Assembly: GCA_046537975.1 (NCBI GenBank)
Contig: JBKHJR010000004.1
Span: 556 to 64,555 of the forward strand
Direction: 5' to 3'
DNA length: 64,000 nucleotides
Source: Desulfurivibrionaceae bacterium
Lineage (GTDB): Bacteria; Desulfobacterota; Desulfobulbia; Desulfobulbales; SURF-16
A model generated the notes under the pieces. The model was not told the origin of the DNA. It saw nothing but the letters and a program-made list of their open reading frames with translations, and did not search any database. Shown one piece after another: positions 13,793 to 39,323 of this stretch. The translations under genes were made by a program, and so were the position numbers. Numbering within the stretch: position 1 is the stretch's first letter; each line of letters opens with the position of its first letter.

Positions 13793-14608
13793 TCATCTTC
13801 CGCCTTCCATTTTGCGCAGGAACTCATCCACTGCCTGCCTGCCTTCCCGGCCCAGGTCCCTGGAGAACTCATTGACATAGAGTTTTATGTGGCTGTCTAT
13901 CACCCGGTCGTCAAGCTCATCGGCATGGCGTTTTATATAATCGTATCCCGCCCCGGGGTGTTCATACCCATACGATATACTGGCCCTGATACAGCTATCA
14001 ATCCTGTTAACCATCTCCTCCCCCAATTCCCGTCTGGCTGCTATTCCTCCAAGCGGTATGGGGCAGCCGGTCTCCTCTTCCCACCAGGCCCCCAGGTCCC
14101 GGAGACAGACCAGGTTGTATTCGGGATAGATAAAGCGGCTCTCATGGATGATCACCCCTCCGTCCACCTCTCCCGCCGCCACCGCCTCCATGATCCGGTC
14201 GAAACGCATGGGCACCAATCCCCCGCATTCCGGGGCAAACAGCTTGAGAAGGGCGGCCGCTGTGGTGTACCGTCCCGGGATGGCAATCTTTTTGCTTTTG
14301 ATTTCTCTTAAGGGCCACTCCCGGCCCGCGATCAGCAGGGGGCCGCAGCCCCGGCCCAGGGCGGCTCCGGAATTGAGCAGGATATATTTGTCCCGGACGT
14401 GGAAGTAAGCGGCAAAGCTCATCTTGCTCACCTCCAGGCGCCCCTCCAGGGCCCACTCGTTCAGGGTCTCCACGTCAGCCAGGACCGGTTCACGGAAAAG
14501 CCGGCAGTCCCCGCCGACAAGGCCGTGGACCAGGGCATGGAAGATAAAGGTATCGTTGGGACAGGGAGAAAAACCCAGGGAAAACAGATTGTTATTTTGA
14601 GAATCCAT
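13793..14608 (-). CDS. mqnD: 1,4-dihydroxy-6-naphthoate synthase (futalosine menaquinone pathway)
   Basis: 271 aa. N-terminal LGFSPCPNDTFIFHALVHG is characteristic of MqnD. Confidence 0.8.
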   Translation of the reverse strand: MDSQNNNLFSLGFSPCPNDTFIFHALVHGLVGGDCRLFREPVLADVETLNEWALEGRLEVSKMSFAAYFHVRDKYILLNSGAALGRGCGPLLIAGREWPLREIKSKKIAIPGRYTTAAALLKLFAPECGGLVPMRFDRIMEAVAAGEVDGGVIIHESRFIYPEYNLVCLRDLGAWWEEETGCPIPLGGIAARRELGEEMVNRIDSCIRASISYGYEHPGAGYDYIKRHADELDDRVIDSHIKLYVNEFSRDLGREGRQAVDEFLRKMEGGR

Positions 14609-14678
14609 GATCGGCAGTCAATTGATTGAATTTACCTGTTCGTTTCGGCAGCTGCTTTTTTAAGCTGCCAACAATTAT

Positions 14679-14735
14679 TGTCAGTCGGTGACAAAAATTG
14701 TCAGTAAAGGTGACGGAAATTGTCAGCAGATGACA
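14679..14735 (+). promoter_or_regulatory. three phased TGTCA-N5-7-TGAC(A) inverted repeats; candidate enhancer-binding-protein (PilR-type) UAS
   Basis: TGTCAgtcggTGACA at 14679-14693, TGTCAgtaaaggTGAC at 14699-14714 and TGTCAgcagaTGACA at 14721-14735. Starts are spaced 20 and 22 bp, 100-155 bp upstream of the sigma-54 element. Confidence 0.55.
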
Positions 14736-14833
14736 TCCATCAGGAGCCCTTTTGATATTCCAGAGAAGATATACTTAAACATTATTTAGATAAATCAGCA
14801 AGATATAAAAAGATTATCGTATCTTTTCCGCCG

Positions 14834-14849
14834 TGGCATGATATTAGCA
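14834..14849 (+). promoter_or_regulatory. sigma-54 (RpoN) -24/-12 promoter upstream of pilin 1
   Basis: TGGCATgatatTAGCA compared with consensus TGGCAC-N5-TTGCA. GG and GC are correctly spaced. Lies 87 nt upstream of the pilin ATG at 14936. Confidence 0.65.
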
Positions 14850-14935
14850 CATATAACGGACAAAAGACAACGAGGCAGAAAAATAATCTATGGCTTATGT
14901 CTTAAACAACCACTCATTTCAAGAAGGAGGTTAAG

Positions 14936-15154
14936 ATGTTCAAACTATTTCACCAGAAGAAGGATCAAAAGGGTTTTACCCTGGTCGAACTGATGATCGT
15001 TGTTGCCATTATCGGCATCCTGGCGGCCATCGCCATCCCCCAGTTCGCCAAGTACCGGGAAAGAGGGTATAACTCGGCGGCCCTCAGCGATCTGCGCAAC
15101 ACCCGTACCGACCTGGAAGGGTTCATGGCGGAATGGCAGAACTATCCCTATTAA
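14936..15154 (+). CDS. pilA: truncated Geobacter-type type IVa pilin (PilA-N-like prepilin), mature 59 aa
   Basis: Leader [13 protein letters not shown]|[24 protein letters not shown]... carries a class III signal with G-1/F+1/E+5. The protein ends after the helix (…[13 protein letters not shown]). Strong SD (aaggagg) present. Confidence 0.9.
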
Positions 15155-15218
15155 ACCAAGGTCCTATGCAGTCAAAACTTAAAATCAAGCTTTTTCCCTT
15201 TTATTAAGGAGGTTAATA

Positions 15219-15596
15219 ATGAAAAAACAGTTTATAAGTACCATAATCCTGGTAGGGGCTCTGGCTCTGGCCCAGCAAGGTTTTTCGGAGACCCAAGAAG
15301 TAACTGACGGGGGAGATATAGGAACCACCGATGTGCTGGAAAATGTCAGCCTGTCTCCCGGTGTAACCCTTCAATATTCTCCTGATACTGCCGGCAACGG
15401 TACATCATATGCAATGGCTTCTAAAAATGATCAAGGCCCCATGGCCTACGCTGTCGAGGCCGGTAACACCGCTGTTTACCAGAATGATGTAGGAACTGAT
15501 GCCGGACTTGCTGATTGGGCAGTCGAAGATGATGGAACTACAACCAATAGCACCTTAGAAGATAACTACGCTGACTATGAAAAAATGGGCCAGTAG
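15219..15596 (+). CDS. small secreted acidic protein; positional analogue of Geobacter PilA-C
   Basis: 125 aa. Sec signal MKKQFISTIILVGALALA|QQ. The mature part is rich in D/E/T/G and has no Cys. Strong SD (aaggagg). Sits 64 nt after pilin 1 with no intervening terminator. Confidence 0.7.
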   Translation: MKKQFISTIILVGALALAQQGFSETQEVTDGGDIGTTDVLENVSLSPGVTLQYSPDTAGNGTSYAMASKNDQGPMAYAVEAGNTAVYQNDVGTDAGLADWAVEDDGTTTNSTLEDNYADYEKMGQ

Positions 15597-15620
15597 AAAA
15601 GCCTGAGAAAATTTAGCCAG

Positions 15621-15649
15621 CCCCCTTCCCCGTACCGGAAGGGGGTTTT
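15621..15649 (+). terminator. rho-independent terminator after the 125-aa ORF
   Basis: CCCCCTTCC-ccgtacc-GGAAGGGGG followed by TTTT, 25 nt after the stop codon. Confidence 0.8.
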
Positions 15650-15689
15650 CAATATTAACGATTGCATTTTTACTCTGACGAGGAGTAAG

Positions 15690-15914
15690 ATGGGAAAATC
15701 AAGCTATCAAAATGTCGGAAAAAACAAAAAGGGGTTCACCCTGGTGGAACTGATGGTTGTTGTGGCCATAGTGGGCATTCTGGCATCGGTGGCAGTTACC
15801 CAGTTCACCAAGTATCGGGGACGGGCCCATGACAGTGTGGCCTTAAGCGATATCCGCAATACCCGTACAGCGGTGGAAGGTTTCATGAGCGAATGGCAGC
15901 ACTACCCTTACTGA
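15690..15914 (+). CDS. pilA: second truncated Geobacter-type pilin paralogue (PilA-N-like), mature 59 aa
   Basis: Leader MGKSSYQNVGKNKKG|FTLVELMVVVAIVGILASVAVTQF... The C-terminus VEGFMSEWQHYPY parallels pilin 1. Confidence 0.88.
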   Translation: MGKSSYQNVGKNKKGFTLVELMVVVAIVGILASVAVTQFTKYRGRAHDSVALSDIRNTRTAVEGFMSEWQHYPY

Positions 15915-15944
15915 TCCGGAGTCAAAATCAAATAAATCAAAACG

Positions 15945-15969
15945 GATGAGTTCCGTAACAGAACTCATC
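15945..15969 (+). terminator. stem-loop after pilin 2 (possible terminator, no T-run)
   Basis: GATGAGTTC-cgtaaca-GAACTCATC, a 9-bp stem, 30 nt after the stop. It lacks a U tract, so the function is uncertain. Confidence 0.35.
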
Positions 15970-15995
15970 TCCAGCCCTTAAGTTCCTGATCCCAA

Positions 15996-16778
15996 ATGCC
16001 CAATTCCCCGGCCATCATCTTCGAACAGGTAAAAAAAAGCTACAGACACGATTTCAAACGCACCACTGCCATCGCCCTGGCCGGTCTTGACCTGGAGGTC
16101 AAAAACGGCGAAGTCTTCGGGGTAGTCGGACCCAACGGGGCCGGCAAAAGCACCTCTCTGAAGATCCTCATGGGCTTTGTCAGGGCGGACAGCGGCCGGA
16201 TAAACCTCATGGGGCACAATCCCGGCAGTCCTGAGGCCCACAACAGGGTGGGCTATCTCCCGGAAAACCCCTGCCTCTATGAAAACCTGAACATAACCGA
16301 CCACCTCCGTTTTGCCGCCCGGACCTCCGGGAATACCGCTCAGATCAAGGACAGGATAAAAGACATCCTCGCCATGGTTGACCTGGCCCATGCCGCCAGA
16401 ACCCCTATCCGCCGCTTTTCCAAGGGCATGACCCAGAGGGCCGCCCTGGCCTATGCCCTCTTCCATGAACCGGAGATCCTGATCCTGGATGAGCCCATGT
16501 CCGGCCTTGACCCCCTGGGCAGACGCCTGGTGGTGGACATTATCCGGCAGTACAATCAGAAGGGACACACCATCCTTTTCTGTTCTCACATCTTGACTGA
16601 CGTGGAAAGAATCTGCGACCGTATAGGCATCATGGACAGGGGAAAGCTGGTTTCAACAATCACTCCGGCCGAACTTGAGAGCATCCCGGAACAAAGCGGG
16701 ATTGAATCTCCCCTGGAATCCTGTTTTCTGAAAACCATAAAAGGTGAAGTACAGGAAAAAGAGAAGAACAAGACATGA
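15996..16778 (+). CDS. ABC transporter ATP-binding protein
   Basis: Walker A GPNGAGKST, signature FSKGMTQR, Walker B ILILDEPMSGLD. Confidence 0.9.
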   Translation: MPNSPAIIFEQVKKSYRHDFKRTTAIALAGLDLEVKNGEVFGVVGPNGAGKSTSLKILMGFVRADSGRINLMGHNPGSPEAHNRVGYLPENPCLYENLNITDHLRFAARTSGNTAQIKDRIKDILAMVDLAHAARTPIRRFSKGMTQRAALAYALFHEPEILILDEPMSGLDPLGRRLVVDIIRQYNQKGHTILFCSHILTDVERICDRIGIMDRGKLVSTITPAELESIPEQSGIESPLESCFLKTIKGEVQEKEKNKT

Positions 16779-17587
16779 GAAATATTTCCGCCCTTGCCCT
16801 GCTCAGTTTCAAGGAAGGCCTGCGCTACCGGGTCCTCTACGGTGTCCTGGTCTTCGCCCTGCTGGTAATGGTCCTGGCTGTTCTGGTCAGCGGCCTTTTC
16901 ATGCGGGACGTCTCCAAGGTCATCCTGGACTTCTGCCTGGCCTCCATTAATGTCGGAGGCCTTCTGATCCCCTTCTTCCTGGGGATCAATCTCCTGGCCC
17001 GGGATCTGGAGCAGCACACCGTTTTCGCCGTCCTGGCCCGGCCGGTCAGCCGCAGCCAGTACATCCTGGGCAAGTTCGGAGGCCTGGTGCTGCTGACTCT
17101 CCTGATCATGGCCATTCTCACCTGCGCCACTTTTGCTTCGGTCTTTTGCGCCAAACTGATCTACGGCAGCGGCTACTTTACCGCCTTTTCTCCGGGGGCG
17201 GTGCTGGTTTCGGTGGGCTTAAGCGCCCTGGCCCTGATTATCTTAAACGGCCTGGTCGTCCTCTGGTGTACCCTGACCACCAGCTCCTTCCTGGCCATCC
17301 TGCTGACCATCTTCTCCTACCTGATCGGCCAGACCGTGGATGACGTGGTCCGCTTCATCAGGGCGGACCATGACCAGGTCACTTTTTCCGCCACGGTGAA
17401 GCATACTGTAGATATAGCCCAGTATGTTTTCCCCAACCTGGCAGCCTTCGACTTCAAGCTCCAGGCAGCCCACGGCGTCTATCCGGCAGTCGGTGAGATA
17501 AGCCTTCTCCTCCTCTACGCCGCGGTCTACACCCTGGCCCTGCTCCTGATCTCCATAATGATCTTTAAAAGGAGAGATGTAGTTTGA
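16775..17587 (+). CDS. ABC-2 type transporter permease
   Basis: 270 aa, about 6 TM helices. 4-nt overlap with the upstream ATPase gene. Confidence 0.75.
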   Translation: MRNISALALLSFKEGLRYRVLYGVLVFALLVMVLAVLVSGLFMRDVSKVILDFCLASINVGGLLIPFFLGINLLARDLEQHTVFAVLARPVSRSQYILGKFGGLVLLTLLIMAILTCATFASVFCAKLIYGSGYFTAFSPGAVLVSVGLSALALIILNGLVVLWCTLTTSSFLAILLTIFSYLIGQTVDDVVRFIRADHDQVTFSATVKHTVDIAQYVFPNLAAFDFKLQAAHGVYPAVGEISLLLLYAAVYTLALLLISIMIFKRRDVV

Positions 17588-18468
17588 GGTTTTTGATCAA
17601 GACTGTATGCCCTCTTGTCATGGCAGTCCTGCTCATTGTCTTTACCGTACCCCGGGTCTATGAGGTCAGGTCCGGATACGTGACAGAGACCATGAGCCAG
17701 TTCGGCAGGATGCCCTCCGGGGTGGTTCAGGCGGTGAGTCTGGAATTCAAGGGCCTGGTGGCTGATTTCCTTTTCCTGAAAACCATTTTTTTCGTGGGGG
17801 AAAAGATCGGGGAGAAAAAAAAGGCCTCTCCCGAGGAATGGCAGCTCATCCATGACATGATCGACCGGATCACCGATCTTGATCCCACCTTCTGGGACCC
17901 TTACCTGTTCGGCGAGATGATGCTGCCCTGGGATGCCGGAATGATCGAGGAAGCCAATGAGCTCCTCCTGAAAGCGGTCCGGAACCGGCCGGATGATTAC
18001 CGTCCCCTCTACTTCCTGGGCTTTAACCACTTCTTTTTCCAGAAAGATTACAATGAAGCCGGCCGCTACCTGCGCCGGGCCTCCCGGAAGCCCGGAGCCC
18101 CCTACTACCTGACCGGCCTTGCCGCCCGTTTCAGTCATTACGGCAAAGACACCAGAGCCGGAATATCATTCCTGAAAAAAGTACTCCGGCAGTCCGACTC
18201 CCCCAAAATAAAGGCTTATCTGACCCAGAGGATCGAAACCCTGAAAATTATAGCCGATCTGGAGGACAAGGTGGCGGAGTACAAAGAAGAATTCGATCAG
18301 CCACCTGAAAAACTCGAGGACTTGGTAGAGGCGGGAATTATTCCGGAAATCCCGGCTGATCCTTACGGCGGCAACTTCACCCTGCTTTCCAACGGCCGGG
18401 TCTATACCACCAGCAAGATGGTGCCGGAACGGATCAGAAAAAAGAAAAAAACAGGAAGAAATCAGTGA
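17584..18468 (+). CDS. membrane-anchored helical-repeat (TPR-like) protein, unknown function
   Basis: 294 aa. TTG start overlaps the permease stop. N-terminal TM helix, then helical repeats (…EEANELLLKAVRNRPDDYRPLYFLGFNHFFFQKDYNEAGRYLRRA…). Confidence 0.6.
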   Translation: MRFLIKTVCPLVMAVLLIVFTVPRVYEVRSGYVTETMSQFGRMPSGVVQAVSLEFKGLVADFLFLKTIFFVGEKIGEKKKASPEEWQLIHDMIDRITDLDPTFWDPYLFGEMMLPWDAGMIEEANELLLKAVRNRPDDYRPLYFLGFNHFFFQKDYNEAGRYLRRASRKPGAPYYLTGLAARFSHYGKDTRAGISFLKKVLRQSDSPKIKAYLTQRIETLKIIADLEDKVAEYKEEFDQPPEKLEDLVEAGIIPEIPADPYGGNFTLLSNGRVYTTSKMVPERIRKKKKTGRNQ

Positions 18469-28279: not shown

Positions 28280-29917
28280 TTAGTCAGGAAGCGGCAGAGT
28301 AAAGCTTATGGCCGCCCCTGATCCTTCCTGATTATTTGCCGCCCTGACTGTTCCCCCATGACCTTCAACAAGCTGTTTCACTATGGCAAGACCCAGACCG
28401 GTCCCGTTCCTTTTACCGGTATAAAAAGGATCAAATATCTTATTAAGACTGTTTTCAGTAAAACCTTCTCCGGTATCAGATACCTCTATAACGACCGGAT
28501 CGTCATTACCTTCTGTTTCATTTACTGATATGTTGATTACTCCATTCTTATTTCCCATGGCTTCCGCGGCATTATCGATCAGGTTTATAAGCACCTGCTT
28601 GAGCTGGGCCCTGTCCCCCCAGACATCCATATTTTCCGGGAAGTCCTTCTTCACCCTGTAGGAATCAGACCATCCTGCATGCTGTTGACTGAACAACTCA
28701 ACAACTTCGTCAACAATACCGGAAAGAGAGGCCCATTCCTTTTCCGGAACAGCAGGTTTGGAAAACTGCAGAAAATCGCGGATGGTAATCTCCAGCCTTT
28801 TACTCTCCCGGCTGATAATCTTTATAAGACCCTTCTGGGCACTGTTGTCAGGAATATCTTTATTCAACACCTGGCTTGCTCCTGAAATGGCGGCTATGGG
28901 ATTACGGAACTCATGGGCGAGACCGGCTGCCATTTTACCGACTGCCGCCATTTTCTCGGACTGGCGGACTTTATCCTCCATTTCCTTGATCCGGCTCAAG
29001 TCCTGCATGGTATAAACCCGGCTTTCGCCGGCATCCCGGTCTATATTCAAGGGGGTCCAGGAGTAGCCCACCGGGATTTCAGCCCCGTCCTTTCTGGTCA
29101 GCCAGACCATAGGCCGGTCTTCCCTGTCGGATTTTTTTTCCATATAAAGTTGAGGCAGATAATCGGCCAAATTCCAGCCTTCTATTTCCGAACTCGAATA
29201 GCCGATTATGTTCTCGGCTGCTCTGTTACAGGACGTGATATTTCCCCGGGCATCGACTGTCAGTATGCCGGTGCTGACATCATCGAAGATCTGCTTGTAA
29301 AGATAGGATAGTTGATCAAGATCGCGGCTTGTCGCGGTAAGAGCCTTTTCCATGCTGTAGAGACGTTCAATAAGGAGAGAACTCAAGATAGCGACCAGAA
29401 AGTAACTGATTCCGAATACGGCAAAATGGTGAAGGCCTGTTTCGGGATTACTCAGGTGGGATATAAAACCCGGAATGACACGGGCGGAAATCCCGGTATA
29501 TTCCGCATATAATACCATTCCGTAGCACAGAGTGGTAATGGACGCCATGAGCAGACCGCCCTTAAGGCGCAGCAAAAATGCACCGCAGATAATGGGGAAA
29601 AAATAGATGATGGTAAAAATCGATTGGCTGCTCTGGGTGAAAATAATCAGGATGGAGGTAAGAATAATGTCAGTGATTATCTGCAGACAGGAAAAAGTCC
29701 TGAGATAAGGCAGTCTTCTGGCTATAAAAGCGGAAATAATGGTGAAAACGTAAACAAAGGCGGTAAAGATAATCACATGGTCAATAGAGGCGTAAATAAG
29801 ATCCACTTCCCCCTGCTCCAGAATAACCGTAATACCGAGGCTGACGGTAATAAGGAGAACCCGGAAAAAGAGAATCCATAACAGGATCTTTTTCATCTGA
29901 TCGTGATCTTCTTTCAC
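28280..29917 (-). CDS. sensor histidine kinase, PilS/NtrB-like architecture (about 6 TM + PAS + HisKA + HATPase)
   Basis: Six N-terminal hydrophobic helices, then a PAS-like region. H-box LAHEFRNPIAAISGASQVL, N box IDNAAEA, G boxes DTGEGF and GTGLGL. Confidence 0.85.
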   Translation of the reverse strand: MKEDHDQMKKILLWILFFRVLLITVSLGITVILEQGEVDLIYASIDHVIIFTAFVYVFTIISAFIARRLPYLRTFSCLQIITDIILTSILIIFTQSSQSIFTIIYFFPIICGAFLLRLKGGLLMASITTLCYGMVLYAEYTGISARVIPGFISHLSNPETGLHHFAVFGISYFLVAILSSLLIERLYSMEKALTATSRDLDQLSYLYKQIFDDVSTGILTVDARGNITSCNRAAENIIGYSSSEIEGWNLADYLPQLYMEKKSDREDRPMVWLTRKDGAEIPVGYSWTPLNIDRDAGESRVYTMQDLSRIKEMEDKVRQSEKMAAVGKMAAGLAHEFRNPIAAISGASQVLNKDIPDNSAQKGLIKIISRESKRLEITIRDFLQFSKPAVPEKEWASLSGIVDEVVELFSQQHAGWSDSYRVKKDFPENMDVWGDRAQLKQVLINLIDNAAEAMGNKNGVINISVNETEGNDDPVVIEVSDTGEGFTENSLNKIFDPFYTGKRNGTGLGLAIVKQLVEGHGGTVRAANNQEGSGAAISFTLPLPD

Positions 29918-31293
29918 TCTATATTGTATTTTTTGATTTTGTAGCGCAGGGAGCGGAAGCTGATCTGCAGAAGATCAGCCGCTTTCATCTTGGAATTACC
30001 GGCCTTTTGCAGGGCAAGTTGAATAAATTCCTTTTCCAGACTGACCATTACTTTTTCAAGACCGTGTTCGAAAAGTTCCTTTTCACTTGCAACTGACGGG
30101 ATACCGGTCCGCTTCTCAGCACTGTCCTCTTTTATCGAAGACGGACTCAGTACATTCAAACTCTCCGGAAGAATGAGGTTGGAGGTTGCCATTGCTACCC
30201 CGCGTTCAATTATGTTTTCAAGCTCCCTGACATTTCCTGGAAAATCATATCCCATCAGGACTTCCAGGGCATAGGAGGACAGAGTCGGAGCCTCTTTGTT
30301 GAAGGCCTGAGAATACTTTCTGAGAAAATAGTCAGCCAGAAGCGGGATATCCTCCTTCCGCTCCCGGAGAGGCGGAACACGCATGGGGACCACAGCCAGG
30401 CGGTAATAAAGATCTTCCCGGAAACGTTCCGCCCTTATCTCTTCTTCCAGGTCCCGGTTGGTAGCGGAAATGATCCGGACATTGACCTGTCTGGCCCGGT
30501 TGTCACCGACCCTTTTGACCTCCCGCTCCTGAAGAAACCGAAGCAGTTTGGTCTGAACCTGGGGGGACAGCTCACCTATTTCATCAAAAAAGGCGGTGCC
30601 CTGGTCCGCGGTTACCAGAAGACCGGTTTTATCGGTATCCGCTCCGGTGAAAGCGCCTTTCCTGTAGCCAAACAGTTCACTCTCAAAAAGAGTCTCGGGG
30701 ATAGCATTGCATATTACCGGAACAAAATGTCTGGCTGCCGCCTCACTCTGTTGGTGTATTGCCTTGGCCACCAGCTCCTTGCCCGTACCGGATTCTCCGT
30801 AGATCAGAACATTGGCGTGAGTCGGACCGATTTTTTTTATCCTGTCAAAAAGCTGCCTCATGGTCCTGCTATTGCCGACAATATCCCGAAACCCGTTTTC
30901 TGACTCACCATCTCTGGAGACGGCATTTGTTTCAATGCTGCTGGCCAAGGCTGAACGGATAACAGCAATCAACTCTTCGATCTGGAAGGGCTTGGTCAGG
31001 TAATCAAAGGCCCCGTATTTCATGGCACTGACCGCGTCTTCCGGAGAAGCAAAGGCGGTTATCAGTATAAAAGGCAGAGAGCTGATCTCTTTGACTGAAC
31101 TGAGAAGGTCAAGTCCTCCCATCCCCTCCATCTTTATGTCAGAGACCACAAGATCAACATTTTCCCGTTTAATTATTTTTAGGGCGCTGTTGCCGTCTGC
31201 GGCTGTCTGAACCGAGTAGCCTTCCTTCTCCAGGAAGATCTTGAGGAATTCCCGCATGCTCAGTTCATCATCGACTATCAGTATGGTAGGCAT
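29914..31293 (-). CDS. sigma-54-dependent response regulator (NtrC/PilR family enhancer-binding protein)
   Basis: Receiver domain (MPTILIVDDE...DLVVSDIKM), AAA+ domain (GESGTGKELVAKAIH, GAFTGA, ESELFGY) and a C-terminal Fis-type HTH. Start set at the ATG at 31293; the ORF-track extension to 31440 looks non-coding. Confidence 0.88.
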   Translation of the reverse strand: MPTILIVDDELSMREFLKIFLEKEGYSVQTAADGNSALKIIKRENVDLVVSDIKMEGMGGLDLLSSVKEISSLPFILITAFASPEDAVSAMKYGAFDYLTKPFQIEELIAVIRSALASSIETNAVSRDGESENGFRDIVGNSRTMRQLFDRIKKIGPTHANVLIYGESGTGKELVAKAIHQQSEAAARHFVPVICNAIPETLFESELFGYRKGAFTGADTDKTGLLVTADQGTAFFDEIGELSPQVQTKLLRFLQEREVKRVGDNRARQVNVRIISATNRDLEEEIRAERFREDLYYRLAVVPMRVPPLRERKEDIPLLADYFLRKYSQAFNKEAPTLSSYALEVLMGYDFPGNVRELENIIERGVAMATSNLILPESLNVLSPSSIKEDSAEKRTGIPSVASEKELFEHGLEKVMVSLEKEFIQLALQKAGNSKMKAADLLQISFRSLRYKIKKYNIE

Positions 31294-31512
31294 CTTTCGT
31301 CCTGAATTCAGAGTTAGGGTTAAGGGGGCCCCAGATCTCATTTCCCAAATTTCACTTGCTGACCATGACAAGTTGCGGTTAATATAATAAGATTGCCAAC
31401 AAACCTCTCTTAAATTAATTAGACTGTGCAAAAATCGCAAACACTATTGAAAAAGCAATCATAAATTCAATATACAATCTGCCGTGACCGTATTAGGTCA
31501 GCAACAACCAGT

Positions 31513-32787
31513 ATGTCTCCCACTGTATTTTCTACAGCCTTTAAAATTTATCAATGGTGCTGGAATCTGGCTATTCCCGTACTCTACTTCCACGGACGCC
31601 TGAAAGAGGGCTTTACGGAAAGGACTGTAAAGAAGCAGCCCTCCCGGGCTGATCTCTGGATACAGGCGGCCTCAGTGGGAGAAGCCTATCTTGCCCTGGA
31701 AGTATTGTCCGGCCTCAACAGCTCCGGACCACTTAGAGTTCTCCTTACCACCAATACCGGCCAGGGCAAAGAGGTTATAGAAAAAGCACTCCGGAATCAA
31801 GAATTTGACATCTCTAATCTGACTGTGGAGAGGGCGTTTTTTCCTTTCGACAACCCCAAGCTTATGGAAAAAGCGGTTACAGCCGCAGATCCCCGGCTGG
31901 TAGTACTTTTAGAAAGTGAATTGTGGCCGGGGCTTTTGACGGTCTGCAAAAATAAGGGGGTGAAGGTACTGGTGATTAACGGCCGCATGACCGAAAAAAG
32001 CCTGAGATATTACCGGTTGTGGCCTACGTTCTGGAGAAAAATCCGTCCTGATAGGGTCATGGCAATGTCTGATGAAGATGCCAGACGCTTCAGAAGACTT
32101 TTCGGCACTGAGGTAGTCGGGAAAATGCCTAATCTTAAATTTGACCGCATCAGTACCAGCCCTCCCCTGGCCGGTGTTCAGAACCCCCTTACCGACCTCC
32201 TTCCTCCCGATTCCCTGTTTATAGTTTTGGCTTCTGTAAGACAGGGAGAAGAAAGGGAAGTCAGGGAACTGATCTCTGACCTTCTAAGGAGGCATCCGCG
32301 AGTAATAATCGGACTCTTCCCCCGTCATATGCACCGTATAAAGTCCTGGCGGAAAAGACTTGCCGGGATATCAGCAGACTGGATATCCCGCTCCCGGCTG
32401 ACCAAACCGGCAAACAAAGGCCAGGTTATCCTGTGGGACAGAATGGGAGAACTCTCTTCGGCCTATAGCTTGGCCCGGGCCGTTTTTGTGGGAGGAAGCC
32501 TCGCTCCCCTGGGAGGCCAAAACTTTCTGGAACCTCTTGTCCATGGAATCAGGCCTGTTATCGGTCCCAACTGGTCCAATTTCCACTGGGTAGGCCGGCA
32601 GATAATCGATCAGGGACTGGTTCAGGAGGCCGGGGACAGGCAGGAGTGTTTGGCCTTACTTGAAAATGACCTTATTCAGCCCCAGGACCGTGAAAAAAAC
32701 CGCAGATACGCTCTCGCCTATTTTGAAGCCTATAGAGGAGGGACCCGGATCGCGGTTGCCGAGATTAACTCCATGCTGGACAACTGA
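31513..32787 (+). CDS. waaA: 3-deoxy-D-manno-octulosonic acid (Kdo) transferase
   Basis: 424 aa. LWIQAASVGEAYLALEVL and the overall GT30 pattern; followed by kdsB. Confidence 0.85.
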   Translation: MSPTVFSTAFKIYQWCWNLAIPVLYFHGRLKEGFTERTVKKQPSRADLWIQAASVGEAYLALEVLSGLNSSGPLRVLLTTNTGQGKEVIEKALRNQEFDISNLTVERAFFPFDNPKLMEKAVTAADPRLVVLLESELWPGLLTVCKNKGVKVLVINGRMTEKSLRYYRLWPTFWRKIRPDRVMAMSDEDARRFRRLFGTEVVGKMPNLKFDRISTSPPLAGVQNPLTDLLPPDSLFIVLASVRQGEEREVRELISDLLRRHPRVIIGLFPRHMHRIKSWRKRLAGISADWISRSRLTKPANKGQVILWDRMGELSSAYSLARAVFVGGSLAPLGGQNFLEPLVHGIRPVIGPNWSNFHWVGRQIIDQGLVQEAGDRQECLALLENDLIQPQDREKNRRYALAYFEAYRGGTRIAVAEINSMLDN

Positions 32788-32811
32788 AAACCCGATACCT
32801 GTAATAAGATT

Positions 32812-33555
32812 ATGGCCGATAAACCAAAATGCTATGGTATTATACCCAGCCGTTATGCCTCATCCCGCTTTATAGGCAAACCTCTGGCCGAGATCCGCGG
32901 CAAGCCCATGATATGGCATGTCTACACCAGGGCCTGCCGCTGCTCTGTTCTGGAGAAAGTAGTCCTGGCCACGGACAGTGAAAAAATATATGCGGCAGCA
33001 AAAAATCTGGATATTCCCGTCCTGATGACCAGCCCGGATCACAGTTGCGGTACGGAAAGAGTGCTGGAAGCCGCCGGTATTATGGAGATAGATGACAATG
33101 ATATAATTCTCAACATCCAGGGGGACGAACCTGCCCTGGAACCGGAAATGTTATCGGAACTGGCCTCACCTTTCAGCAGCCCGGAAGTACAGGTCTCCAC
33201 TCTGGCCCGCCCCATAAGCGCCGCCGAGGCCGAGGATCCTGATCAGGTCAAGGTGGTAATTTCCGGGGACAACCGGGCCCTCTACTTTTCAAGATCCATG
33301 ATCCCTTACCCGAGAGATGGCATATCCGAAGGTTTTTACGGCCATATCGGCCTCTACGGCTTCCGGATGAAGACCCTGAAAAAATTCGTCGAGCTGGACA
33401 AAGGCTTCCTTGAAAAAAAGGAAAAACTGGAACAGCTGCGGCTGCTGGAAAACGGGATCCCCATTAACGTAGTAACCACTTCCCACCGGGGACATGGAGT
33501 TGACCGGCCTGAAGATATTGACGTAATCGAACAGATCCTTCAGGGAGAAAAATAA
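32812..33555 (+). CDS. kdsB: 3-deoxy-manno-octulosonate cytidylyltransferase (CMP-Kdo synthetase)
   Basis: [30 protein letters not shown] and NIQGDEP motifs. Confidence 0.9.
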
Positions 33556-33561
33556 GATCTT

Positions 33562-34692
33562 ATGCGGCTGGCCTTCTGTATCTTCAGTTACTTTCCGTAC
33601 GGCGGTCTGGAAAGAAATTTCAAATCTGTAGCAGATGAATGTGCGGCGCGGGGACATGAAGTTGACGTATATACCATGCAGTGGGATGGAAGTCTCCCTG
33701 AATCCCTTAATCTAAAGATCCTGCCTGTCAGGGGATGGAGTAACCACCGCAGGGCAGAAGATTATGTCCGGAAGCTGCAGGCCGGACTTCAGGAAAAACC
33801 CGCCCACCTGGTTATCGGTTTTAACAAGATGCCCGGACTGGACCTGTACTATGCCGGCGATACCTGCTATCTGGACAGGATCGGGAGAGAGAGAGGACTG
33901 CTTTCCAGACTGACTCCCAGATACAGGATTTTGTCAGGCTTTGAAAAGGCGGTATTTTCTCCTGAGTCAAAAACGGAAATAATCTATCTCTCGGAAAAAG
34001 AAAAAAAGATATACCAGGAGCTTTACCACACCCAGGAAGTTAGGTTTCATTACGCCCCGCCGGGGGTGAATAAAGACCTTATCCGCTCCCGGCTCAAAAA
34101 GGGAAAAAAAGGCGGGGCCGGATCGGACCTGGGACTGGCCGAAAATGACAACCTGCTTCTTATGATCGGCTCTAATTTTCATACCAAGGGGGTACACAGA
34201 TCCATCAGGGCTCTTGCCTCACTGCCTTCTTCCTTGCTTAATAAAACTTGGCTTGTGATTATAGGTCGGGGTAATGAAAGAAAATACAAGAGGATGGCCC
34301 GCCGTCTTCGGATCCATGACCGGGTTATTTTCCTGGGAGGCAGAGATGATGTCCCCGCTTTTCTGGCTGATGCTGATCTGGTGCTGCAGCCTTCTTTGAA
34401 TGAAAATACCGGCAATCCCATAGTGGAGGCAATAACTGCCGGAGTACCGGTACTGGCTACGGAAAACTGCGGGTTTTCCAGACATATCAAGGCATCCGGC
34501 GCAGGAAGGGTAATCCCCTGCAACCCCTTTAATCAGGAAACAATGAATCGTCTTCTCCGGGATGTATTACTTGCCCCTGACCGGGCTAACTGGCACCAAC
34601 TGGCCTTATCCTACTCAGACCGGGTTGATCTTTACAGCCGTATACCCACGATAGTCGGGACAATAGAGGAAATAGGCGGGACCGGAACATGA
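33562..34692 (+). CDS. glycosyltransferase family 4 (WaaG/RfaG-like LPS core glycosyltransferase)
   Basis: MRLAFCIFSYFPYGGLERNF N-terminus and a C-terminal E...NTGNPIVEAITAGVPVLATENCG (EX7E-like) region. Confidence 0.75.
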   Translation: MRLAFCIFSYFPYGGLERNFKSVADECAARGHEVDVYTMQWDGSLPESLNLKILPVRGWSNHRRAEDYVRKLQAGLQEKPAHLVIGFNKMPGLDLYYAGDTCYLDRIGRERGLLSRLTPRYRILSGFEKAVFSPESKTEIIYLSEKEKKIYQELYHTQEVRFHYAPPGVNKDLIRSRLKKGKKGGAGSDLGLAENDNLLLMIGSNFHTKGVHRSIRALASLPSSLLNKTWLVIIGRGNERKYKRMARRLRIHDRVIFLGGRDDVPAFLADADLVLQPSLNENTGNPIVEAITAGVPVLATENCGFSRHIKASGAGRVIPCNPFNQETMNRLLRDVLLAPDRANWHQLALSYSDRVDLYSRIPTIVGTIEEIGGTGT

Positions 34693-35633
34693 ACCAACTC
34701 CAAAAAGATCTTTCCCGTCCTATAACCTGTAAGAGGCTGACCCATAGCAGCAGGGAAAAACTCATAATTAACAGAGAATTCGGCAGGACTCTGGCAAGCG
34801 CGGACTTAACGAGCTTTGATAAAGTGTGGGATTATACTGAAGGAGAAATGATAAAAAGTAAAAACAATCGATCTGTCAGCAGAATAGATCTGAAATATTT
34901 TTTACCGGAAAACAGGGATGGTACCCCGGAAGTGGGAACCAACCTGAGGTCTTTTTTTCTTAAAAAACACAGTGAGCCCTTAGGCCTAACCGGAAAAACA
35001 GATTTATGGAAAATATCTGAAAAACTGCAGGGCGAGGGACTCAGAGAGTTTAACAACTACTGCGATTTCCGGAACAAGGGCCTGGCAACCGCAACTCCTG
35101 TAGCCGGAGGTATGCGGAGGACCGGCTCAACATTACGGTCATTTCTGATTACAATGGATTTCAGCCCCTTGTATGCCTTGGAGGATATAATTCTCCGGCA
35201 CCCGGAAAAACTGGAATCGCCGATCAATCAGGAAAAAAGAAAAAATATTCTGGCAGCAATTGCACGTTATGCCCGTCATATGCATAAGCATGCAATTAAC
35301 CAGAAGGATTTCAATGCCACCCATATCCTGGTTAATGATATAGATTCACCGGATCCCGTCATAGCCCTCTTTGATCTCCAGCATGTTGATCGAAAAATAA
35401 TAAACCGCTTCCGTTGGCCGATCAAGGCACTGGCCGAATTGAATGTTAGTCTTCCCCGGTCGATTTTTTCAGAACAGGACAGATTTTTTCTTTTCTGCAG
35501 CTACAAAGGAAAAACCCACCTTGATCTTATTGACAGGTTCAGATATAAATGCGTAGTTAAAAAGACTGAAAAGATACGCAGACACACTCTGAAAAATAAT
35601 CTGGCCCCGAAAAGCAACAGCCTGGAACAATAG
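34689..35633 (+). CDS. lipopolysaccharide kinase (Kdo/WaaP) family protein, divergent
   Basis: RSFLITMDFSPLYALEDI hinge-like segment. Catalytic-loop-like HAINQKDFNATHILVN and ALFDLQHV. 4-nt overlap with the upstream GT gene. Confidence 0.65.
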   Translation: MNQLQKDLSRPITCKRLTHSSREKLIINREFGRTLASADLTSFDKVWDYTEGEMIKSKNNRSVSRIDLKYFLPENRDGTPEVGTNLRSFFLKKHSEPLGLTGKTDLWKISEKLQGEGLREFNNYCDFRNKGLATATPVAGGMRRTGSTLRSFLITMDFSPLYALEDIILRHPEKLESPINQEKRKNILAAIARYARHMHKHAINQKDFNATHILVNDIDSPDPVIALFDLQHVDRKIINRFRWPIKALAELNVSLPRSIFSEQDRFFLFCSYKGKTHLDLIDRFRYKCVVKKTEKIRRHTLKNNLAPKSNSLEQ

Positions 35634-35732
35634 CCTGACCGAAATTATACCATGGTTGATACAACTATTTCTTATCCATTAAACCTGATCAGACTGTCCT
35701 TCAGTTTATGCTGATGATGTTTTTAAATTACA

Positions 35733-36545
35733 ATGCCTTATATGAAAAAATATAGAAAAATCGCTTATAACGGTTTTAAGCTCAAAATATATAAAGAATA
35801 TGTGGATGAGAACCTGTTGCAGAAATGCTGCCGGAATGATCTTGGAAAAGATCCCGATTTCCAGCCTTTCAGCAGCTCCTCATATAGTCGTGTTTTCAAA
35901 TTCAACTACAACGGTCAGGAATATTTTCATAAGGTTTTCTTAAACCGCAACATGTTCGAACCGATTAAAGCCATGTTCAGGGGCAGCCGGGCCGAACGTT
36001 CATTACAAGGAAGCCAGTTGCTCCTGAGACACGGCTTTAATGTTCCCGGCTTTATACTGACAGGCAGCAAGGGAAATTTGAATTTCAGCTTAACAGAAGC
36101 CCCTCCCAACGCCAGAAACTTAACCCAGTTTGTCAGCGAAAAATTCGTTCCTGACCTGAACCGTGAACAGATTGCTCTGAAAAAACGTCTTATCAAGAAA
36201 CTGGGAAGTGTTATAGGGCAATTACATTCTCAGGGGATTTTCCATGGGGACCTGCGCTGGGGCAACATCCTGGTTCAGGAATCACCGCTTGCTATCTGGT
36301 TTGTGGATAATGAAAGAACATCCATCCATGGCAGGTATCTGTCATGTAAAAAAAGACTCAAAAACCTGGTGCAGATAAATATGACTCTGGATCCGGTAAT
36401 AACCAGAACAGATAGAATAGCCTTTTTAATTTCCTATCTCCGGGAAAACAGAGAGTTATTGCCCCGCAAGAATGAACTGGCGGCACAAGTGCAGGAAAGG
36501 ACTGAACTCAGGTTGGCCAAGCATAAGGCTTATAACATCAATTAA
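35733..36545 (+). CDS. lipopolysaccharide kinase (Kdo/WaaP) family protein
   Basis: GIFHGDLRWGNILV catalytic loop and FVDNE (DFG-equivalent). Confidence 0.75.
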   Translation: MPYMKKYRKIAYNGFKLKIYKEYVDENLLQKCCRNDLGKDPDFQPFSSSSYSRVFKFNYNGQEYFHKVFLNRNMFEPIKAMFRGSRAERSLQGSQLLLRHGFNVPGFILTGSKGNLNFSLTEAPPNARNLTQFVSEKFVPDLNREQIALKKRLIKKLGSVIGQLHSQGIFHGDLRWGNILVQESPLAIWFVDNERTSIHGRYLSCKKRLKNLVQINMTLDPVITRTDRIAFLISYLRENRELLPRKNELAAQVQERTELRLAKHKAYNIN

Positions 36546-36581
36546 TCAGTGCCCCTGCCAAAAACTGAGAGCCAACCTTAA

Positions 36582-37220
36582 TCAGGCGTTTTCAGCAGAT
36601 GACTTTTCCTGCGGCGGATGACCGATCACGAATTCAATGCCATGGGCAGGCAGATGATACACCAGATTTTCTTCGTAATATTCCTGAAACCATTGGCAGG
36701 AATTAATTACCCGTCCGAGACCTTTCTTCAGAAAACCCAACAGGGCAAATTCAAACCTAAAGACCAGCTTTTGAGAAATAATTTGAATGCGAAGGTCGGA
36801 ATAAAAATTCGGAACCTTCCGTTTTAGCTGGTGTTCAAAATCCGCATAATAATAGAAAGTATAAAGTCCGAAAGGTCTTACATGGGTGGGATCCGAATAA
36901 TAGTATGGATTTGAGAAATGTGGTACAAATACATAGGCGCGTCCATCTTCTTTCAGCACCCGCATAATTTCCCTTAACAGGAAATCAAAATTATGAATAT
37001 GCTCCAGGACACTGCGGCAATGGATCTCATCCACAGAACGCTGCGGCAGAAAAGAAAGTCCCTTTTCGATGTCTGTGACAATATCAATCTCCGGAAGATC
37101 AAACTGGTCGATCCCGATCCGCCCCGGTTTCTTTTTTTGCCCGCAGCCGATATCGATAATCACCGGCTGATCCTCCTTATGCAATCTCTTGTCGATGTCG
37201 ATTCTTATTTCCGTTTCCAT
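36582..37220 (-). CDS. class I SAM-dependent methyltransferase
   Basis: VIIDIGCGQKKKPG (motif I) and a Methyltransf_11-like layout. Confidence 0.75.
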   Translation of the reverse strand: METEIRIDIDKRLHKEDQPVIIDIGCGQKKKPGRIGIDQFDLPEIDIVTDIEKGLSFLPQRSVDEIHCRSVLEHIHNFDFLLREIMRVLKEDGRAYVFVPHFSNPYYYSDPTHVRPFGLYTFYYYADFEHQLKRKVPNFYSDLRIQIISQKLVFRFEFALLGFLKKGLGRVINSCQWFQEYYEENLVYHLPAHGIEFVIGHPPQEKSSAENA

Positions 37221-37353
37221 TGGTTCCCATAGTCCACAATTGCCTGACAGTTTCTGATCTTAACGTCCCTGATGAATAATACACGCCAGAAATTGTTCTT
37301 GTTATTTTTTCATGGTGCATATTATAGTGACAACCTCGTAAGTAAGGATAAAT

Positions 37354-38343
37354 ATGACACGAAAACGCTTATTGATATTATCCAACAACCCCCTAAGGGC
37401 AAGTTTCCGGCAGCGGATCGGTATCTATCTGGACCGGCTTACCGAGGCCGGCATAGAGTGGCGTCTGGAAAAATTACCCAAAAGCTATCTCAATCGCTGG
37501 CACCTATTGCGGCAGGCAAAGGATTATGATGCTGTACTGCTGCATAAAAAGACCCTGAATATCTGGGATGCAAGAATTCTTCGAAACTCCGCCCGGTCAA
37601 TCATCTACGATTTTGATGATGCGATTATGTACAGTCCCCGGCAACCGGAAAAAGACAATACCTCTCACTTTCGATTATTCCGCCGGACGGCAGGAATATC
37701 GGATCTGGCTATTGCCGGCAATGACTACCTGGCTGATCTTGCTCGTCCGTTTTCTTCGAATGTGGAGATCCTGCCTACCGGCTTGGATTTATCGGAATAT
37801 CAAGAAATCGATTCACAACAACCAGACTCCTATATCCGGCTGGTCTGGATCGGCAGCCGGGCAACTTTAAAATATTTAGCCGATATTGCCCCTGCTTTAG
37901 AAGAAATCGGCCGGATGGATAATTCCGTTATACTGCGCATTATCTGTGATGATTTTCTGGAGATGGACTCCATGCCCGTGGAAAAATGTTCCTGGTCAAT
38001 GCAGACGCAGATAAAAGACCTGTCTGAGTGCGATATCGGCCTGGCCCCCTTGCCGGATAACCGCTTTACGCGGGGCAAATGTGGATTTAAAGTACTGCAA
38101 TATTTTGCCGCTGGTTTGCCGACAGTAGCTTCGCCGGTGGAAATCAATGGAAAGTTGATTTCGGAAAGCGGCGCCGGATTAACAGCAGAAGACCCGGAGC
38201 AGTGGAAAGAATCCTTGCTGAAATTGATCCGTGACAGCAGCCTGCGCAAAAAACAGGGCAGTAATGCCCAGCAATATATAAACAATTATGGGCTTGAGCC
38301 GGTCGGCAGCCGGTTTATTGAGATTATTCGCAGTGTAATCTGA
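37354..38343 (+). CDS. glycosyltransferase (GT-B fold, family 1/4-like)
   Basis: 329 aa. The C-terminal region GKCGFKVLQYFAAGLPTVASPVEINGKLI resembles the GT1/GT4 nucleotide-sugar binding region. Confidence 0.65.
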   Translation: MTRKRLLILSNNPLRASFRQRIGIYLDRLTEAGIEWRLEKLPKSYLNRWHLLRQAKDYDAVLLHKKTLNIWDARILRNSARSIIYDFDDAIMYSPRQPEKDNTSHFRLFRRTAGISDLAIAGNDYLADLARPFSSNVEILPTGLDLSEYQEIDSQQPDSYIRLVWIGSRATLKYLADIAPALEEIGRMDNSVILRIICDDFLEMDSMPVEKCSWSMQTQIKDLSECDIGLAPLPDNRFTRGKCGFKVLQYFAAGLPTVASPVEINGKLISESGAGLTAEDPEQWKESLLKLIRDSSLRKKQGSNAQQYINNYGLEPVGSRFIEIIRSVI

Positions 38344-38537
38344 TGTAGTGTACCGTTTTTTCTGTCCTCTTTCTGAACACGAAATTATTGTAGTAATCTT
38401 GGCATTCCAGAACCAGTCACCCTTTTGCTTTTGATGGATCTCACGGTAAAGTCTTCAAAGAAACGGAGGGTTCTTGCCAATGTGTAATAACCAAGAACTT
38501 CACTTCTCCCTCTTTTTCTGCACATATTAAATAATAT

Positions 38538-39323
38538 CTAAGTTGCAGCCGGTCGCCTTTTTTCATACTTTCCTCGTTTCCGGGCCAACTGCTTATAAAG
38601 ACTCTTCTCCACTTTTCCGGCACGCCCCCTGAATGCCTTTAAATAACCGGTAATTAGCTTATCCTCTACTCTTTTTGCCATATTAAACTCAGTGGCCGAC
38701 AAAATAAACCGGGCCAGATCCCTCCCCATGGCAGCAGGCGAATTGCAGACTCGGACATGATCCAGATCAGTTAAAATAATTTCACTTTCATGTCCTGGTA
38801 CGTAAAGGATATTGCTCCATTTCAAATCTCCATGAATGAAGCCCTTTCCATGCAGAGAAGCAATTACCAATAAAGCCTGCTCTAAGATGTTGATTATCTG
38901 ATCTTCTGTCCCACTTGTTCTATCCCTGGCCATCTTACCGAGATTATTGCCTTCAAGCCATTGACTTACCTGCCAGGTATGAGAGACAAAACCTTTATCT
39001 CTGATTTCCAGATAAAGCAGCTGTTCAACCACCGGAATATCAAGATCTATTAAAGTGGATGAAAAGTTCCAGGTTATTCTACCAGGGGGTATACGAAAAA
39101 AAGATAATTGTTTCTTGTAACCTTGCCACTCCCTATGCTGTAGACAGACTTCTCCCCAGGGTTCAAGTCTGGTCTTCAAAGTAAGTTTATCATTATCACT
39201 TTTCAAGACCTTGTTGGGATTTTCGGCGGCTGACTTTACCCTGGGAAGCCAATATCCTGGTTTATCATCCAATTCCTGTTTTCGGCACAAACAGATTATT
39301 TCAGAAGCATTTTTAATAATCAA
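38538..39323 (-). CDS. lipopolysaccharide kinase (Kdo/WaaP) family protein
   Basis: GFIHGDLKWSNILY catalytic loop and ILTDLDHV. The start codon at 39323 is TTG. Confidence 0.75.
   Translation of the reverse strand: MIIKNASEIICLCRKQELDDKPGYWLPRVKSAAENPNKVLKSDNDKLTLKTRLEPWGEVCLQHREWQGYKKQLSFFRIPPGRITWNFSSTLIDLDIPVVEQLLYLEIRDKGFVSHTWQVSQWLEGNNLGKMARDRTSGTEDQIINILEQALLVIASLHGKGFIHGDLKWSNILYVPGHESEIILTDLDHVRVCNSPAAMGRDLARFILSATEFNMAKRVEDKLITGYLKAFRGRAGKVEKSLYKQLARKRGKYEKRRPAAT

Follow-up and report, generated by a model that had tools for sequence, protein, structure and literature searches.

A putative Geobacter-type split pilin operon with an additional, diverged helix-only pilin in a Desulfurivibrionaceae genome

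The DNA examined here is a 64,000-nt stretch (hereafter the window) of a Desulfurivibrionaceae metagenome-assembled genome (MAG; order Desulfobulbales), corresponding to positions 556 to 64,555 of contig JBKHJR010000004.1 in assembly GCA_046537975.1. It carries three small consecutive genes on the + strand, at 14936-15154 (72 aa), 15219-15596 (125 aa) and 15690-15914 (74 aa), exactly where an original prediction made from the bare sequence had placed them. The two outer genes encode short pilin-like proteins, which we call pilin 1 and pilin 2, and the middle one, ORF125, encodes a small acidic protein with a signal-like N-terminus. Pilin 1 ends 64 nt before ORF125 and pilin 2 starts 93 nt after it. 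From the sequence comparisons set out below, the locus is interpreted as a Geobacter-type split type IVa pilin operon, in which a helix-only pilin (PilA-N) and a detached pilin head (PilA-C) are separately encoded, with one additional diverged helix-only pilin; this layout is referred to as N-C-N. What is new here is the second conserved helix-only pilin added to a known split-pilin system, which is a real but modest variation and not a new system. The elements of the locus are as follows.

14678-14726, + strand: putative upstream activating sequence, with three TTGTCAG half-sites and two tandem GTGAC-N5-TTGTCAG units
14789-14816, + strand: A+T-rich block GATAAATCAGCAAGATATAAAAAGATTA, near-invariant in three lineages
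14834-14849, + strand: putative sigma-54 type -24/-12 promoter TGGCATGATATTAGCA, assigned by pattern match, with conserved spacing
14936-15154, + strand: pilin 1, predicted pilA-N, a truncated type IVa major pilin (Pfam N_methyl, TIGR02532 and PDB matches)
15219-15596, + strand: ORF125, predicted pilA-C, an acidic, beta-rich detached pilin head (phmmer, family profile, AlphaFold2 and Foldseek)
15619-15653, + strand: predicted intrinsic terminator or attenuator after pilA-C (11-bp stem and U run)
15690-15914, + strand: pilin 2, predicted diverged pilA-N paralogue (Pfam N_methyl, PDB match, sister clade in the pilin tree)

Two helix-only pilins and one detached head

Both outer genes encode proteins with the features of class III prepilins. 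The precursors, of 72 aa for pilin 1 and 74 aa for pilin 2, begin with a short basic leader ending in Gly (MGKSSYQNVGKNKKG in pilin 2), which is followed by FTLVELM and a hydrophobic helix (...KG/FTLVELM..., with Phe+1 and Glu+5). Against the Pfam N_methyl model (PF07963) pilin 1 scored 44.7 bits and pilin 2 41 bits (cut-off 21.2), and against TIGR02532 they scored 39.7 and 38.2 bits (cut-off 16.3), so that both models recognise the prepilin signal which had originally been read directly from the letters. The mature proteins are each 59 aa long, a length that agrees with their earlier description as truncated pilins devoid of a globular head.

When all PDB sequences were searched, the best match of both proteins was PilA-N of Geobacter metallireducens (9egp_A), with E 1.4e-24 over residues 7-71 of pilin 1 and E 2.8e-20 over residues 11-73 of pilin 2. 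The next matches, again for both pilins, were 7tgg_A from G. sulfurreducens and 2m7g (the same sequence is present in 6vk9), which aligned over the whole mature length; the matched chains are labelled 'Geopilin domain 1', that is PilA-N. Full-length pilins in the PDB matched the two proteins at the N-terminal helix only, with E around 1e-10. On the strength of these alignments both outer ORFs are assigned as Geobacter-type truncated pilins (PilA-N), and both are encoded beside the putative pilA-C. Pilin 1 shares 68% identity with mature G. sulfurreducens PilA-N, close to the two thirds that had been estimated beforehand.

The two pilins share 70% amino acid identity, and 72.8% nucleotide identity over the mature part, where about three quarters had been judged by eye. 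Relative to pilin 1, pilin 2 is changed at 17 of the 59 positions, seven of which lie in the normally invariant first 25 residues, and its changes include Pro22 to Thr, Tyr32 to His and several Ile-to-Val replacements. Broken down by segment, identity amounts to 72% over residues 1-25, 50% over residues 26-35 and 79% over residues 36-59; both proteins keep Glu5 and the C-terminal EGFM-EWQ-YPY segment. Pro22 is retained in pilin 1, while Thr22 is found in pilin 2 of all three lineages in which the N-C-N layout occurs (see below). A helix-kinking proline at position 22 is typical of type IVa pilins without strictly defining them.

Both sequences also fall within the in-silico definition of e-pilins, which asks for at least 9.8% aromatic residues, no stretch of more than 22 aa without an aromatic, and aromatics at positions 1, 24, 27, 50/51 and 32/57 (10.1101/668343). 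In pilin 1 aromatics make up 13.6% of the residues, the maximum gap is 22 and aromatic residues stand at positions 1, 24, 27, 32, 50, 54, 57 and 59, and pilin 2 has 11.9% aromatics, the same maximum gap and aromatic residues at positions 1, 24, 27, 50, 54, 57 and 59; these criteria serve for prediction, and the conductivity of pilins is itself a matter of dispute (PMC12954529, PMC9207759).

ORF125 matched no Pfam or NCBIfam model. As a single sequence it retrieved 9egp_B ('Geopilin domain 2') in a phmmer search with E 4.8e-5. An exhaustive profile search placed it in a small set of signal-peptide proteins of 112-136 aa that share a LSLSPNV-LSY...KG-M-YGVE-G...VYQ core, and a profile built from nine members of this family matched 9egp_B with E 1.2e-15 and G. 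sulfurreducens PilA-C (7tgg_a) with E 3.1e-5. The AlphaFold2 model of ORF125, computed with 24 family members (pLDDT 82.7), consists of a signal-like helix at residues 3-19, in keeping with the Sec signal that had been noted at its N-terminus with ALA/QQ as putative cleavage site, followed by six strands. In a Foldseek comparison with 350,542 PDB chains the top three matches were 9egp_B, 6vk9_1 and 7tgg_a, all of them PilA-C (probability 0.97-1.00), and sequence identity to the solved PilA-C chains was 18-27%. Because the sequence profile and the fold search agree, we assign ORF125 as a predicted PilA-C homologue, the identity that had been put forward for it as a candidate. The composition originally described for this protein, very acidic and rich in Thr, Asp and Gly, was also recovered: the mature part contains 19 D+E against 2 K+R, 13 T and 13 G, and has a pI of 4.05. 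Between the window and its Desulfobia counterpart ORF125 shows 66% identity and a dN/dS of 0.43, and its nearest relatives beyond the lineages with N-C-N are PilA-C proteins of Desulfuromonadaceae and Desulfuromusa, at about 30-39% identity.

Conservation and expression of the N-C-N locus

The N-C-N layout was found with identical flanks in three lineages, namely the window, a Desulfobia sp. MAG (locus L003) and GCA_023659595.1 (loci L084/L085). In each, the pilin genes are preceded by ilvB, ilvN and a gene of the VitK2_biosynth family and followed by genes for an ABC ATPase, an ABC-2 permease and a protein of about 290 aa. In a neighbour-joining tree of mature pilins the three pilin 1 and the three pilin 2 sequences formed sister clades, with longer branches for pilin 2; the duplication is therefore older than the split of the three lineages, and pilin 2 is best described, from this tree and the rates below, as an old, faster-evolving pilA-N duplicate. 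Both pilins are under strong purifying selection. Among the three lineages dN/dS was 0.01-0.03 for pilin 1 and 0.08-0.11 for pilin 2 (Fisher p <=2e-9, with dS exceeding 1), the dN of pilin 2 being about tenfold above that of pilin 1. The pilin 2 reading frame is intact, its mature length identical and its ribosome-binding site conserved in all three.

A search of 5.8 billion proteins found close relatives of pilin 2 confined to the three N-C-N lineages, and no further N-C-N locus was present among about 170 fetched loci. A scan of JGI metagenomes with an ORF125 alignment returned no relatives, and a scan with a pilin 2 alignment returned 80 loci, none of which was an additional N-C-N. When a genome collection was scanned with the pilin alignment, most of the matches listed were unrelated full-length pilins that share the generic GFTLVELM pattern. 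The arrangement first proposed from a single sequence is thus real and conserved, and rare as far as this survey extends. Plain N-C loci were found in Desulfocapsa (L004), Desulfuromusa kysingii (L086), Desulfuromonadaceae and related contigs (L087-L090) and L092. The limited literature accessible to us yielded neither a case of one PilA-C bracketed by two helix-only pilins nor a report of split pilins from Desulfurivibrionaceae. A metagenome contig, L091, carries at 396-1084 a truncated pilin of 73 aa that is 65% identical to pilin 2 but has Pro22; it is followed by an ORF for a beta-rich protein with a signal peptide that the PilA-C profile did not detect and that may represent a second, more divergent class of detached head.

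Upstream of pilin 1, TGGCATGATATTAGCA at 14834-14849 has the GG-N10-GC spacing of a sigma-54 -24/-12 element, and this spacing is kept in both other N-C-N lineages (L003 in Desulfobia and L084 in GCA_023659595.1). It is the sole match to TGGCAY-N5-TWGCW in the 64 kb, although the pattern was picked after the site had been seen and at least one match occurred in 21 of 100 shuffled sequences. Further upstream, at 14688-14726, lie two tandem GTGAC-N5-TTGTCAG units 22 bp apart (two exact matches versus 0.15 expected), and with another TTGTCAG at 14678 they make up a cluster of three copies of this heptamer; we take these repeats to resemble the TGTC sites of Pseudomonas PilR. The intervening A+T-rich block GATAAATCAGCAAGATATAAAAAGATTA is a candidate DNA-bending (IHF-like) site, since it partially matches what we take to be the IHF consensus, WATCAANNNNTTR. 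All three N-C-N lineages conserve the promoter, the repeats and the A+T-rich block within surrounding DNA that diverges. More widely, many loci of Desulfobacterota and Myxococcota have TGAC-N6-TGTCA some 250-370 bp ahead of pilA, and it looks like a widely conserved putative enhancer (PilR-box) motif. Such palindromes are often arranged in tandem, examples being L050 4725-4771, L053 4732-4778, L005 4715-4752 and L089 7461-7475.

Pilin 1 and ORF125 both have a strong ribosome-binding site, AAGGAGG, whereas that of pilin 2 is GAGGAG. No terminator was found between pilin 1 and ORF125. After ORF125, a G+C-rich stem of 11 bp at 15619-15647 runs into U-rich sequence, and this terminator is kept in L003 and L084 with altered stem bases. 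An equally strong terminator stands directly after PilA-C in every ordinary N-C locus inspected, that is, in loci without pilin 2 (L004 4194-4330, L086 4923-4999, L087 8364-8486 and L089 8343-8415). Because Desulfuromonadales and Desulfocapsa have a terminator of this kind at the corresponding place in their ordinary N-C loci, we regard it as an ancestral feature of the operon, an attenuator between the pilin pair, probably highly expressed, and the genes that follow. In N-C loci without pilin 2 the gap before the ABC genes is as short as 73 nt, which leaves hardly any room for a promoter, and transcripts that start at the pilA promoter and pass the terminator may in general be what the downstream ABC operon relies on.

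From the end of the terminator to the ATG of pilin 2 there are 40 nt, in which neither inspection by eye nor scans found a sigma-70-like or sigma-54-like site. As the terminator appears to be ancestral, the gap is this short and it contains no promoter-like site, low-level read-through of the terminator, probably together with the ABC genes, is more likely to account for expression of pilin 2 and is more economical than independent expression. Of the original prediction, then, the terminator between ORF125 and pilin 2 stood (15619-15653) and the independent expression of the two pilins that had been deduced from it was not supported. A hairpin that would sequester the ribosome-binding site of pilin 2 was considered and dropped, being conserved in neither L003 nor L084. 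An Rfam scan of 14400-16200 gave no match.

Neighbouring genes and candidate regulators

Three further groups of features lie downstream of the pilin genes.

15944-15970, no strand assigned: hairpin between pilin 2 and the ABC genes, with no U tract on the + strand
15996-16778, 16775-17587 and 17584-18468, + strand: ABC ATPase, ABC-2 permease and 294-aa protein (Pfam and synteny)
29914-31440 and 28280-29917, - strand: PilR-like response regulator and PilS-like histidine kinase (domain matches)

The hairpin at 15944-15970, which Desulfobia does not conserve, has a stem of 10 bp and a T run on the minus strand only; no gene on that strand runs towards it.

The third gene of the ABC module, at 17584-18468, encodes a protein of 294 aa for which neither Pfam nor NCBIfam gave a match. 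In the Desulfuromonadales loci L086-L090 pilA-C is followed by this trio as well, and the canonical layout there is pilB-T-C-S-R / N / C / terminator / ABC / ABC-2 / a protein of about 285 aa. The ABC proteins of the window are 47-58% identical to their counterparts at split-pilin loci (38-41% for the third protein) and 29-43% identical to those encoded after full-length pilins. Because identity is higher next to split than next to fused pilins, the comparison suggests that the split-pilin-plus-ABC module arose once and that Desulfuromonadales and some Desulfobulbales have it in common through vertical descent or transfer.

The remainder of the window had originally been described as free of pilB, pilT, pilC and pilM-Q genes. 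This held for the ORFs of at least 150 aa, but a PilS-like kinase and a sigma-54 regulator at 28280-31440 had been overlooked. The regulator (29914-31440, 508 aa, - strand) has the domains Response_reg, Sigma54_activat and HTH_8, and the kinase (28280-29917, 545 aa, - strand) the domains 6TM_PilS, PAS, HisKA and HATPase_c. Compared over the full length with the proteins encoded next to pilA-N in L087, the regulator is 43% identical to PilR and the kinase 29% identical to PilS. The pilin locus lies 12 kb away, and the pair is a candidate for control of the pilin 1 promoter. The pair is ordered regulator then kinase, opposite to pilS-pilR in the Desulfuromonadales loci. Beside it, at 31513-39323 and 55404-56456, are genes of the lipopolysaccharide-core type, which include a Kdo transferase, a CMP-Kdo synthetase-like gene, two Kdo/WaaP-family kinases and glycosyltransferases, with a heptosyltransferase further along. 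ORFs at 39-48 kb whose lengths resemble those of PilC, PilT, PilB and PilR were identified with Pfam as a glycosyltransferase, a hydrolase, an ABC exporter, an oxidoreductase and a threonine synthase, and no further ORF with a pilin signature was found in the window.

Proposed role of the second pilin and relatives of the locus

We propose, and consider reasonably probable, that the locus is a split PilA-N/PilA-C operon in which pilin 2 is a second PilA-N-type subunit, expressed by read-through and sub-stoichiometric. Pilin 1 would supply the N-terminal helix and hence the filament core, and ORF125, exported separately via Sec, would supply the beta-sheet head. The two would be co-transcribed from the sigma-54 promoter, activated via the PilR-type repeats, and translated from their matched strong ribosome-binding sites. 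Solved Geobacter filaments consist of equal parts of PilA-N and PilA-C (PMC12954529), and because pilin 1 and ORF125 are homologous to these subunits, 1:1 heterodimers of the two are most likely; they would be polymerised by type IVa machinery encoded outside the window. Pilin 2, as an old tandem duplicate that is now distal to the ancestral terminator and heads the ABC genes, would be made at a lower level by read-through and would act as a minor subunit whose core helix is modified by Thr22 in place of Pro and by several Ile-to-Val changes. PilA-C is probably its partner too, because the two pilins agree best over residues 36-59, and in the Geobacter filament it is this half that touches PilA-C.

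Several observations weigh against this proposal. In the 64-kb window none of pilB, pilT, pilC, pilD and pilM-Q was found by Pfam among ORFs of at least 150 aa, and the assembly machinery is assumed to be encoded elsewhere. For ORF125, the Foldseek E-values against PilA-C are modest (9e-3 to 4e-2), with TM scores of 0.33-0.52, and for the response regulator an identity of 43% is insufficient to prove that it is the PilR orthologue. Pilin 2 could possibly be driven by a promoter that lies within the 3' end of ORF125, or by one of a type other than sigma-70. Lastly, pilin 2 of GCA_023659595.1 (L084 5463-5684; L085 2121-2342) has AGA (Arg) in place of the near-universal Gly(-1). This should block cleavage by the prepilin peptidase and speaks against a polymerising role in that lineage, unless it is an assembly error. 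The substitution may be genuine, giving a variant that escapes cleavage, or may reflect one wrong base in the assembly; the mature part of this pilin 2 is under purifying selection despite it.

The original prediction had raised the possibility of two alternative heteromeric filaments or pseudopili, for which both pilins would be major subunits made from independent promoters under different conditions, each pairing with the single PilA-C. The strong terminator between the two genes would fit such a scheme, as would the purifying selection on both pilins and their shared retention of the class III signal, Glu5 and the C-terminal EGFM-EWQ-YPY segment. The terminator is however ancestral in appearance and present in loci without pilin 2, the 40-nt gap offers neither room for nor a match to a promoter, and PilA-C appears transcriptionally coupled to pilin 1 only. 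Pilin 2 furthermore evolves about ten times faster than pilin 1 and alters normally invariant helix residues including Pro22, a pattern typical of minor pilins, and one lineage carries Arg(-1). Taken together these points make alternative filaments unlikely. We give an equally low standing to the idea that pilin 2 does not polymerise at all and instead acts in the inner membrane as a regulator that modulates PilS signalling, the size of the pilin pool, the stability of PilA-C or the ABC exporter. Pseudomonas pilins feed back on PilS by intramembrane contacts, and the window encodes a kinase with a 6TM_PilS domain. Moreover, the divergence of pilin 2 is concentrated in the transmembrane helix and residues 26-35, the gene heads the ABC operon beyond the pilA terminator, and the Arg(-1) variant still has a mature part under purifying selection. 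Against this idea, Gly(-1), Phe1 and Glu5 are kept in two of the three lineages, as a processed and assembled pilin requires.

That pilin 2 might be a functionless, decaying remnant of a tandem N-C duplication (N-C-N-C, with the second C lost) appears very improbable. Its non-synonymous rate is above that of pilin 1, Pro22 has been lost and one lineage has also lost Gly(-1), but all three lineages keep an intact reading frame with the same mature length in spite of dS values above 1, the ribosome-binding site is conserved, and the low dN/dS of 0.08-0.11 (Fisher p <=2e-9) led us to reject a pseudogene. Though we consider it rather unlikely, pilin 2 may be a dedicated accessory subunit that evolved for split-pilin filaments, with a helix straightened by Thr22 and a shared PilA-C, which primes or caps the filament or limits its length or which, in the Arg(-1) lineage, stays uncleaved and tunes PilS signalling or PilA-C stability. 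If true, this would make N-C-N a three-component pilus-subunit system and not a simple duplicate.

The split organisation is the same as in Geobacter (GSU1496/GSU1497; 6VK9, 7TGG and, for G. metallireducens, 9EGP), where a helix-only pilin of 59-61 aa is followed in one operon by a beta-rich partner of about 100 aa that is predicted to be exported via Sec. Pilin 1 is 68-71% identical to PilA-N of G. sulfurreducens and G. metallireducens. ABC-transporter genes are likewise found downstream of the Geobacter locus, GSU1498-1508 being the xap polysaccharide cluster that includes an ABC ATPase (PMC3495685). The window differs in its Desulfurivibrionaceae host, in the detachment of the locus from pilB-T-C-S-R and in the extra diverged PilA-N after PilA-C. 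The nearest outside relatives of pilin 1, at 71-81% identity, are encoded in the N-C-ABC loci of Desulfuromonadaceae and Desulfuromusa (L086, L087, L089 and L090). These have in common with the window the ABC trio, the terminator after PilA-C and the upstream TGAC-N6-TGTCA, and they also hold the nearest relatives of ORF125, but they contain a single PilA-N and most are directly preceded by pilB-T-C-S-R.

Truncated pilins have been described as a Desulfuromonadales branch within the deltaproteobacterial pilin cluster, and the pilin of Desulfurivibrio alkaliphilus, the cultured member of the Desulfurivibrionaceae, is full length, at 182 aa (10.1101/668343, 10.1101/118059). At the syntenic site, a Desulfobulbus sp. 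(L005) and a Thermodesulfobacteriota MAG (L006) encode one fused pilin of 205-210 aa followed by an ABC ATPase and a permease. The N-terminal 60 residues of the fused pilins are 63-66% identical to pilin 1, and their C-terminal domain aligns weakly with ORF125 over a K-x-G-x-x-Y...D-T-A-x-Y-Q motif. Full-length pilins of 180-210 aa, similar to pilin 1 over their N-terminal 60 residues and with the PilA-C-like K-G-x-Y...D-T-A-x-Y-Q motif in the C-terminal domain, are encoded at L005 4977-5594, L006 4986-5618 and L168 2854-3558, and have the look of naturally unsplit counterparts of the locus.

For Geobacter, split pilins, their operon structure, a gene-fission model and reversed C-N gene orders are described in the searched passages of PMC5174107 and PMC6201914. 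According to the former (Shu et al. 2016), C-then-N loci occur in Geobacter sp. M18, G. bemidjiensis and G. lovleyi, and fission is explained by duplication and degeneration; these passages contain no mention of N-C-N. The N-C-N layout contains both gene orders and is an intermediate type from which the loss of either N would give N-C or C-N. Unlike the transient state of the fission model, the three-gene state is stably kept under selection in three lineages. Duplication of pilA is common in related orders, with tandem paralogues in Myxococcales, Pelobacter, Deferrisoma and Desulfuromonas acetoxidans that are lineage-specific, as stated in the searched passages of PMC6060248; helix-only copies that share one detached head are not mentioned in those passages.

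The argument about Geobacter 'nanowires' centres on split PilA-N/PilA-C pilins, most descriptions of which come from Desulfuromonadales. The locus extends the split module, including its ABC genes and PilR-type promoter, to Desulfurivibrionaceae, which are relatives of cable bacteria, and N-C-N is a plausible evolutionary intermediate between the N-C and C-N orders of Geobacter. The significance of this is modest unless pilin 2 has a distinct role. A second helix-only pilin that shares one head would provide a natural test of how strictly N and C subunits have to be matched in stoichiometry and sequence.

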